A DNA stretch of 16,720 nucleotides from a virus (taxonomy: Duplodnaviria; Heunggongvirae; Uroviricota; Caudoviricetes), in IMG/VR virus record IMGVR_UViG_2695420596_000011; one strand, given 5' to 3'. Positions 12,563 to 14,001 of the stretch are shown here, one piece after another. Numbering within the stretch: position 1 is the first letter of the stretch; each line of letters starts with the position of its first letter. Under the pieces are notes generated by a model. That model was not told the DNA's origin. It was given only the letters and a program-made list of their open reading frames with translations, and did no database searches. The translations under genes and the position numbers were made by a program.

Positions 12563-13221
12563 CCACTATTACCAAAGAGCGACTGCTGACAATCAAGCAG
12601 TGGCGCGAAACATACGGACCTGGTAGCAACGTTGTACTGCCAGCAGAAGAAGCGGAAGAACTGGCACGAATTGCACTGGCATCACTGGAAGCAGAGCCAG
12701 TTGCTTATATTTTCAAACATCCGGCCGGAAAATTATTCTGGGCTTTGACGGATGAAAGCAATAAAGATCAATCGGACGTTATTCCTGTTTATGCCGCCCC
12801 TCCAGTACCAGTAGTACCTGCTGCATTACCTGAGAACGACGATGAGGACGGGCATGACATTGATTATCTTGATCCATCTGAAGTTTACGCGCTTGGGCGA
12901 ACAGCTGGCTGGAACGCCTGCCGCGCCGCCATGCTTCAGGGTAAATCCGAACAACCACAAAACGCACAACAAAATATTCCGGAAAATATTCCCGGTGGCA
13001 ACTCTCCGGTAACTCCGGATGGTTGGATAAGCTGTAGTGAGCGAATTCCCGCTCAAGACGATTGGGTTTTAATTTATTCAAAGCACGGCGAGTATATGGC
13101 AGGACAGGTACAAGGGGAATACGTGGAGTTGAGCGACGGCACTTTATCGTGGTTAGGGAACGCCTTGTACTGGATGCTGCTACCAGAACCGCCGCAGGGA
13201 GTGAATGATGAATTGGCCTGA
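12559..13221 (+). CDS. Phage protein with C-terminal DUF551-like domain (220 aa)
   Basis: ATGA-coupled to the upstream gene. C-terminal segment WISCSERIPAQDDWVLIYSKHGEYMAGQ...WMLLPEPP resembles the DUF551 pattern common in enterobacterial prophage early regions. Central Pro/Ala-rich linker. Confidence 0.6.
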   Translation: MTTITKERLLTIKQWRETYGPGSNVVLPAEEAEELARIALASLEAEPVAYIFKHPAGKLFWALTDESNKDQSDVIPVYAAPPVPVVPAALPENDDEDGHDIDYLDPSEVYALGRTAGWNACRAAMLQGKSEQPQNAQQNIPENIPGGNSPVTPDGWISCSERIPAQDDWVLIYSKHGEYMAGQVQGEYVELSDGTLSWLGNALYWMLLPEPPQGVNDELA

Positions 13222-13291
13222 AGCATTCACCGCTGTAGGAGTTGCAATCGCGGTGGCATTTATTCTGTATTCGCTTTTCCGCTGGGGATAA
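13205..13291 (+). CDS. Small hydrophobic peptide (28 aa, MMNWPEAFTAVGVAIAVAFILYSLFRWG)
   Basis: Found by direct reading. Overlaps the end of the DUF551 gene in another frame and ends 4 nt before the next gene's ATG. Single transmembrane-like segment. Confidence 0.3.
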   Translation: MMNWPEAFTAVGVAIAVAFILYSLFRWG

Positions 13292-13295
13292 AGGA

Positions 13296-13538
13296 ATGTT
13301 CGCTCTGATTCAACGTGGTCAGATATACACCGATAGCGCCGGCTACCCGATAAAAATTCTTCGCTGCATAAACAACACTGTGTTGTACAGAAGAATGGAT
13401 GGGCGAACACAGTCGGTAAAAATAAACGATTTTAATGAACTGTTTGAACGGATCGATCACCAGGAATACCGACAAATTCTGGCTGAAACAGAGCAGGAGA
13501 ACCATCTGAAAAAATTACGCGCCATGCAAAGGAGATAA
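13296..13538 (+). CDS. Hypothetical small protein (80 aa)
   Basis: AAAGGA Shine-Dalgarno immediately upstream of ATG 13296. Product MFALIQRGQIYTDSAGYPIKILRCINNTVLYRRMDGRTQSVKINDFNELFERIDHQEYRQILAETEQENHLKKLRAMQRR. Confidence 0.5.
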   Translation: MFALIQRGQIYTDSAGYPIKILRCINNTVLYRRMDGRTQSVKINDFNELFERIDHQEYRQILAETEQENHLKKLRAMQRR

Positions 13539-13656
13539 ACCGGTAAAGGTGTTCGCGATAAAGGTGAATATCGGCAATGAATAACAATCCTCGCACTCGC
13601 GGGGATTTCTTTTATCTGAACTCGCTACGGCGGGTTTTGTTTTATGGAGACAAGAA

Positions 13657-14001
13657 ATGTCAGATTTGGCTATGAAGGTTTTGAAATGGCAATCGACTGG
13701 CGATGTTGGCATCAGTAGCGCAACTCTTGCCTCAATCGCATGTGGACTGAAAAAGAATATCTATGGTCATCACTTCGGCGCTCCACATGACGCAGCAGAC
13801 TTCCGGCGATGCGTTGCACTTGTTGAGCAGATTCCAGAAATCAGAGATTCATTCGACAAGGTTGCAAAGCGCGTTCCGGCATTCAAAGGCATCCTCAACG
13901 AATGGGATTCCCTCGTCGCTCTGTTGAAGTCTGAAATGAAGATACACGGAAACAAAGCACCAGAGACTTACAGAAGAATTAGCGAGCTACGCAAGGACTA
14001 A
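13657..14001 (+). CDS. Hypothetical protein (114 aa) in the ea8.5 position next to xis
   Basis: ORF with GGAGA-like Shine-Dalgarno upstream. Does not match lambda Ea8.5 as I recall it. Followed by a terminator-like hairpin. Confidence 0.55.
   Translation: MSDLAMKVLKWQSTGDVGISSATLASIACGLKKNIYGHHFGAPHDAADFRRCVALVEQIPEIRDSFDKVAKRVPAFKGILNEWDSLVALLKSEMKIHGNKAPETYRRISELRKD

Follow-up and report, generated by a model that had tools for sequence, protein, structure and literature searches.

The window analysed here, a stretch of 16,720 nucleotides (nt) from the Caudoviricetes record IMGVR_UViG_2695420596_000011 of IMG/VR, is the early-left (pL) arm of a lambdoid prophage with int and xis of the HK022 type, read from left to right on the + strand. 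In that direction, the cIII thermoregulator (8411–8469; Rfam RF01804) is followed by bet, exo, orf60a/DUF1317, orf63/DUF1382, an orf61-like gene, a TraR/orf73-like gene and an ea22-like gene, and further on by a gene for a protein of 171 amino acids (aa), a DUF551 gene, the region under study, xis (14107–14325) and int. Our subject is a 27-codon gene for a hydrophobic peptide (MNWPEAFTAVGVAIAVAFILYSLFRWG; 13208–13291, + strand), which was delimited by the conservation of its family and lies inside the variable accessory ('ea' or exo–xis) region. The 1.4 kb around the cluster is 100% identical to chromosomal prophages of several Escherichia coli isolates and, piecewise, 96%–97% identical to HK022, 434 and the Shiga toxin (Stx) phages.

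Between the DUF551 gene and xis, we confirmed the three open reading frames (ORFs) that a first-pass annotation of this DNA had listed, namely, 13205–13291 (28 aa), 13296–13538 (80 aa) and 13657–14001 (114 aa). None of them is lambda ea8.5, as that annotation had stated: when Ea8.5 was compared by BLASTP with the peptide and with the DUF4222, ORF114 and DUF551 proteins, the only hit covered seven residues (E = 4.5). The further claim that all three are unannotated and unrecognisable holds for the short ORF but not for the other two, which are present in RefSeq as a 'DUF4222 domain-containing protein' (80 aa; WP_000457736.1) and as a 'hypothetical protein' (114 aa; WP_001281192.1) that belongs to phrog_1229. 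The cluster is made up of two ordinary, annotated accessory early genes and one overlooked small gene, the latter belonging to a known kind, the small membrane proteins of phage accessory regions.

Translation signals and conservation of the 27-codon gene

The longest ORF begins with the ATG at 13205, which accounts for the 28 residues initially assigned to the peptide, but the start that is consistent across the family is the second ATG, at 13208, which gives 27 aa. This ATG is preceded, at a distance of 6 nt, by the Shine–Dalgarno (SD) sequence GGGAG (13197–13201, + strand; read from the sequence), and elsewhere in the family, GGAGG with a spacer of 7 nt predominates. The upstream DUF551 gene (12559–13221, + strand, 220 aa; WP_053904227.1; Pfam PF04448, E = 7.5e-9) contains the ribosome-binding site of the peptide in its last codons and overlaps the peptide start. 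Its C-terminus in the window reads ...PPQGVNDELA*, and that of most relatives ...PPQEVK* or ...PPQEVNQ* at the ATGA of the peptide gene (13196–13221); a single-nucleotide difference (GAAATG versus GAATG) shifts the DUF551 frame, so that its stop falls 11 nt inside the peptide gene.

The same arrangement recurs with other partners. Across the family, the peptide ATG overlaps (as ATGA or TGATGA) the stops of at least five unrelated upstream genes, which include several DUF551 variants, a coiled-coil protein (L0139 of 933W) and proteins ending in ...AEDILR, ...GIGVEVK and ...KKKGMNQ, and a ribosome-binding site of the GGAGG type is kept ahead of the start behind all of these.

Homologues were gathered by tblastn against phage genomes, motif-based scans of loci and scripts; the loci that were read comprised the tblastn loci together with 80 viral contigs, a few genome contigs and several complete genomes. 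The tblastn search returned full-length matches ranging from 100% down to approximately 48%–54% identity, and the family conforms to the pattern M-x-W-P-[ED]-A...G...A...S..RW, in which M1, W3, P4, A6, G11, A15, S22, R25 and W26 are invariant. There are three main types: type A, to which the window copy belongs, type B, M[TS]WPEAFTTVGIAMAVALVVYSICRWG, of which 933W carries the variant MTWPEAFANVGTVMAVVLVVYSICRWR, and type C, MSWPDAIVTLGVVFAAAFVVFSICRWG. The 163 instances collapse into 33 distinct DNA and 12 distinct protein sequences. All but one of the DNA versions (32 of 33) have exactly 27 codons counted from the ATG equivalent to 13208, the remaining one (L098) carrying a 1-nt deletion, and the stop codon, TAA or TGA, is always at the same position. 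The three types differ from one another at 20%–25% of nucleotides, and still each retains the 27-codon length, its start and stop and the ribosome-binding site.

Given that ORFs of 20 aa or more number 131 in 7.2 kb of the window, a 27-codon ORF is by itself no more than chance would provide, and it is conservation that lifts this one above the background. The pairwise ratio of nonsynonymous to synonymous polymorphism (pN/pS) is 0.31 in the peptide frame, whereas the other two forward frames give 1.02 and 2.51; we treat these figures as a pattern rather than a formal test because the pairs are not independent. Variable sites are distributed as 11, 10 and 21 over codon positions 1, 2 and 3. In complete E. 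coli genomes, the diverged matches (75%–82% identity) span only positions 6 or 12 to 97 of the 100-nt query, that is, from the SD sequence or the ATG to the stop, so that the conserved unit is precisely the ribosome-binding site plus the ORF. Thus, the reading frame, its exact length, the ribosome-binding site and the start/stop overlap are kept in copies whose proteins are approximately 48% identical.

The check that the first-pass annotation had itself proposed, conservation of the frame in related phages, was hereby run and came out in favour of the gene, the frame being conserved in 33 DNA and 12 protein versions. Its view that a small membrane-peptide gene lies here below annotation cut-offs also gains support from the constant 27-codon length, the bias toward synonymous substitutions and the conserved ribosome-binding site. 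On these features of the sequence, 13208–13291 is very probably a genuine protein-coding gene that annotation has overlooked. The RefSeq annotation, made with the Prokaryotic Genome Annotation Pipeline (PGAP), omits the short ORF, and the phage records that we inspected likewise omit the 27-codon frame; a few GenBank submitters list a product of 27–28 aa as a 'hypothetical protein', with no family name. In the record of phage vB_EcoS-689R5 (locus L006, 1499–1609), the submitters entered a 36-aa ORF that covers this DNA in the wrong frame. A literal search of 8 million papers with the peptide sequences returned nothing relevant, and scans of both this peptide and the second 27-aa peptide described below against Pfam, PHROGs, NCBIfam and PADLOC yielded nothing significant.

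Distribution and cassette layout

Matches to the 100-nt query occur in 1561 of 5426 complete E. coli genomes (approximately 29%), at up to seven places per genome, with 115 places on plasmids; the copy on a 120-kb plasmid reads MSWPEAFTTVGIVMAAALGLYSICRWW. The gene is also present in Stx phages such as 933W, VT1-Sakai and BP-4795 and in a member of the Vequintavirinae, which are large lytic phages. A motif scan of the fetched loci (L002 and L003 among them) found no peptide gene in HK022 and 434, and the gene is absent from the Rac and Qin prophages of K-12, so that the names of K-12 small proteins and the expression data for them do not apply to it. Short contigs labelled as a Segatella copri metagenome-assembled genome and as Xanthomonas pisi (L010 and L013) hold the peptide gene of E. 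coli phages.

Downstream of the gene, the context varies. In types A and C, the ATG of a DUF4222 gene lies 4 nt past the peptide stop, and the last codons of the peptide hold the ribosome-binding site of DUF4222. In type B, a hok/mok/sok locus (hokW in 933W, for example) usually lies approximately 150 nt downstream, with other genes elsewhere. Conversely, 28 of the 80 DUF4222 loci have a ribosome-binding site of their own and no peptide ORF upstream. These loci, together with the type B copies that lack DUF4222, rule out an obligate pair of peptide and DUF4222 and imply that the peptide gene is an independent cassette. What emerges is a minimal mobile cassette with at least five unrelated genes as its upstream neighbours and several different contexts downstream.

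Two other apparent associations were rejected. Natural fusions of the peptide with DUF4222 (109 aa; P0303 and P0289) were traced to 1-nt deletions in two contigs from metagenomes; in complete genomes, the 27-codon gene is intact. The grouping of the peptide with DUF551 proteins of 121 aa is an artefact of the clustering, as those proteins do not contain the peptide.

Proposed role of the peptide and competing explanations

Residues 6–24 of the peptide are hydrophobic, with family values on the Kyte–Doolittle scale of 2.1–2.3 over 17 residues; for type A, the grand average of hydropathy is 1.11 and the best 17-residue window reaches 2.28. Aromatic residues flank the hydrophobic core on both sides (W3/F7 and Y21/W26), the sole basic residue, R25, is close to the C-terminus, and the G11-xxx-A15 motif is invariant across the family. 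The only library model that touches the peptide is DUF883_C, the glycine-zipper anchor of ElaB, YqjD and YgaM, with which it shares a P/W motif, a zipper of small residues and a basic end; the score (13.2 bits against a cut-off of 27, E = 0.07) places the peptide outside that family, and the DUF883_C anchor is the tail of a larger protein, whereas the peptide is free-standing. Small inner-membrane regulators of the MgtR, AcrZ, PmrR, KdpF and CydX kind are often missed by annotation pipelines. The peptide resembles these in its length below 50 aa, its predicted single hydrophobic helix, its small-xxx-small motif and its short charged tail, but it has no sequence relationship to them and differs in being phage-borne, located in an early operon and, in all likelihood, translationally coupled.

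Our preferred reading, to which we assign a probability of roughly two in three, is that the gene, part of the early-left operon, is translated into a single-pass inner-membrane peptide that packs against a membrane protein. The peptide would be translated from the pL transcript by coupling to the upstream gene, after infection or induction, and would insert into the inner membrane as a single helix, with a probable N-out/C-in topology suggested by the aromatic residues at both interfaces and by R25 near the C-terminus. The invariant G11-xxx-A15 face might then pack against a helix of a membrane protein, either one of the host or the peptide itself, in a mode comparable to that of small bacterial membrane proteins that modulate larger ones. 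Among the functions suggested in the first-pass annotation, that of a putative inhibitor of a host protein is placed first as the most plausible.

Several points weigh against this reading. The pN/pS pairs represent only a handful of lineages, the antisense frame with the shared wobble positions also gives a pN/pS of 0.31, and an antisense gene is excluded only through its missing conserved start and stop. Some copies are damaged: in phage 689R5 and in contig L010, the peptide ATG is lost through a 1-nt deletion, which reflects either gene decay or sequencing error, and there are the 1-nt deletions in the two metagenome contigs; hence, either the gene is dispensable or the reads carry errors. 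The family is confined to elements of the Escherichia/Shigella type, except for one partial Salmonella record, and its evolutionary depth is shallow. Finally, translation and membrane insertion are inferred from sequence, and the packing against a membrane partner, which draws on sequence features and analogy, is rated below the claim that the gene is coding.

The alternative that survives best, although we consider it unlikely, is that only the act of translation matters, the ORF serving as a ribosome 'bridge' to the downstream gene and as a conserved recombination linker at mosaic junctions and its product being functionless. It would account for the overlap of the start with the upstream stop in every copy, for the types A and C stop just ahead of the DUF4222 ATG with the DUF4222 ribosome-binding site in the last peptide codons and for the location of the cassette precisely at mosaic boundaries; moreover, the unrelated 27-aa ORF at 10879, between orf63 and orf61, has the same ATGA layout at both ends. 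However, type B copies, which have no downstream gene for approximately 150 nt, preserve frame, length and motifs, many DUF4222 genes do without the peptide ORF, as noted above, and W3, P4, G11, A15, S22, R25 and W26 survive at approximately 48% identity under the low pN/pS of the peptide frame, a conservation of residues that a pure coupling ORF does not need.

Less probable still is a membrane-damaging type I toxin of the Hok, TisB or DinQ kind or a holin-like modulator of lysis timing, both of which the first-pass annotation had raised. The peptide is like the type I toxins in size, hydrophobicity and predicted membrane location, being a short hydrophobic peptide as they are, and type B usually lies next to hok/mok/sok. 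But type I toxins have a promoter of their own and an antisense RNA, whereas the peptide start is coupled to the upstream stop within a long operon, no promoter-like site was found on either strand near 13100–13400 and no antisense RNA was matched in Rfam. The hok neighbour occurs in one of the three types only, and there is no sequence similarity to Hok. Holins and antiholins belong to the lysis cassette, next to the endolysin, and the peptide gene is far from it. Neither suggestion is, therefore, supported, the first for want of an own promoter and an antisense RNA signature and the second for the location of the gene outside the lysis cassette.

That there is no gene at all, the conservation stemming from a cis-acting RNA or DNA element, an opposite-strand gene or recent common ancestry, is highly improbable, for although type A copies are nearly identical to each other and the antisense frame with the shared wobble positions is open here as a 76-aa ORF (13180–13410, minus strand), that frame lacks a conserved start across loci (mostly, there is no ATG), varies widely in extent and is open because hydrophobic codons give no antisense stops, the RNA of 13190–13300 folds like shuffled sequence (z = −0.22), and the divergence among types A, B and C leaves the 27 codons and their signals intact.

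Beyond the preferred reading of a membrane peptide that packs against a partner, we tentatively entertain a broader and rather doubtful possibility, namely, that a promoter-less mini-gene, consisting of the ribosome-binding site and 27 codons, spreads by recombination among temperate, plasmid-borne and lytic coliphages, and that its GxxxA peptide targets a specific inner-membrane complex of the host early in infection; candidate targets would include proteins of DNA entry or transport and the FtsH/HflKC system. If true, this would amount to a new family of phage-encoded small membrane effectors in approximately 29% of complete E. coli genomes. More generally, small membrane proteins are systematically absent from genome annotation, and this peptide is widespread, including in the Stx-converting phages of enterohaemorrhagic E. 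coli (EHEC). Modulation of a host membrane protein by the peptide during prophage induction, if it occurs, could alter lysogeny decisions, superinfection or the biology of Shiga toxin phages, traits that have already been tied to the poorly understood exo–xis region.

Neighbouring genes and a second short frame

The 80-aa protein encoded immediately downstream of the peptide (13296–13538, + strand) passes the Pfam cut-off for DUF4222 (PF13973; 57.9 bits against 27, E = 7.3e-16, residues 4–54) and also matches phrog_285. The only characterised member of DUF4222 is RgdR (ECs1581) of EHEC, a weak and non-specific DNA binder that represses motility and activates both LEE1 and type III secretion (PMC3378721, PMC10877973); its RGD tripeptide (residues 20–22) has been reported to be important for activity (PMC3378721). 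The two proteins have in common the Pfam domain, an RG-x-IY-x-D..G core, small size, a basic C-terminus and a prophage origin. However, they are 37% identical over 27 aa only and differ in length (80 and 99 aa), the window protein has RGQ (R7-G8-Q9) where RgdR has RGD and thus lacks the motif of the RgdR subgroup, and RgdR is encoded by a P4-like rather than a lambdoid prophage. In the AlphaFold2 model of the 80-aa protein (predicted local distance difference test score 85.5), a five-stranded small barrel (residues 10–53) is followed by a long basic C-terminal helix. This suggests that the protein is a transcription modulator that possibly binds RNA polymerase, and DUF4222/RgdR proteins may dock a Tudor-like barrel on the polymerase in the way that the C-terminal domain of UvrD and CarD do. 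The predicted resemblance of the barrel to RNA polymerase-binding domains offers a structural lead for the RgdR family of regulators.

The third gene of the cluster, ORF114 (13657–14001, + strand), belongs to the family of ORF114 of phage 434 and gp32 of HK022 ('N15 early protein homolog'), with which it shares 96%–97% DNA identity; the counterparts occupy the same position, directly upstream of a terminator, pI and xis, and nothing notable differs. The match to the phrog_1229 hidden Markov model is full-length (residues 1–114, E = 7.1e-52), and a HMMER search recovered 1862 representative clusters (50% identity) at E ≤ 1e-3. G18, S20, P43, D45, D48, R51, C52 and W83 are invariant in an alignment of 42 sequences. 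Often, the domain constitutes the C-terminal part of proteins of 200–350 aa that have no Pfam domain (P0134–P0262), and Pfam scans of ten such longer proteins produced no informative partner domain. The predicted fold is all-alpha and very confident, and fold searches with it found no solved structural neighbour; we flag this combination of wide occurrence, a confident fold prediction and no solved relative.

A terminator scan placed two tandem terminator-like hairpins with U-tracts (13586–13607 and 13618–13637, + strand) in the spacer ahead of ORF114, and the region 13539–13660 folds with −37.8 kcal/mol (z = −3.46), a value that none of 200 shuffled sequences attained. In 434 and HK022, a gene for 55–59 aa (168 and 180 nt) is located just ahead of ORF114; the region matched in 434 is approximately 196 nt longer than its counterpart in the window, and this gene appears to be missing from the spacer 13539–13656. 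Past ORF114, another terminator-like hairpin (14060–14075, + strand; terminator scan) is followed by TTGC-N6-TTGC, the CII-binding consensus (14081–14094, + strand; read from the sequence), at a distance of 13 nt from the xis ATG. The annotation of phage 434 has a terminator and pI in the corresponding position, and 14060–14094 is expected to be the CII-dependent pI region just upstream of xis.

The first-pass annotation had also noted a similar hydrophobic 27-aa peptide (MTTTECIFLAAGFIFCVLMLADMGLVQ; 10879–10962, + strand) coupled between orf63 and the orf61-like gene. The ORF and its position were borne out, as it fills the gap between the two genes exactly, with ATGA overlaps at both ends; the similarity to the 13208 peptide extends to hydrophobicity but not to sequence, and the two are not homologous. 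This second peptide is encoded in 138 phage records, including that of lambda, where it is unannotated (31008–30925, complement). Seven of the 11 variable sites are synonymous third positions, the other four change the amino acid (F>L, A>V, A>S and D>G), indels are absent and divergence is low. The synonymous excess (binomial estimate, p approximately 0.04) and the lack of indels indicate that this ORF is probably coding too, with a pure coupling role as a possible alternative. An identical copy of the lambda 27-aa ORF is found in MW057783.1, a 48.4-kb record named 'Campylobacter phage CJLB-4'; this label, like those of contigs L010 and L013, is probably due to contamination or mislabelling. 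In the lambda reference (L231, NC_001416), the annotation of orf61 (30839–31024, complement; window 10893–11174) adds 32 codons ahead of MTPQQ, where PGAP, the 434 annotators and others place the start. As these added codons run across the unannotated 27-aa ORF in another frame, the reference start is probably wrong.

Two further genes of the accessory region deserve mention. The 171-aa gene (12047–12562) overlaps the stop of the ea22-like gene; its product strongly matches phrog_9263 and phrog_631 (unknown function) and weakly matches a 'DNA repair protein' PHROG (E = 0.002), and a Pfam scan gave no match. Directly ahead of the TraR/orf73-like gene, a 31-aa ORF (MNMKSKIIRELQAPFLLFAFTLKRINQQFRD; 11171–11266) has its ATG overlapping the stop of the orf61-like gene, and the annotation of phage 434 holds a 29-aa version of it. 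According to a review, ribosome profiling of lambda revealed a 31-aa 'orf2313' in the conserved block that contains this ORF, and the two may be the same.

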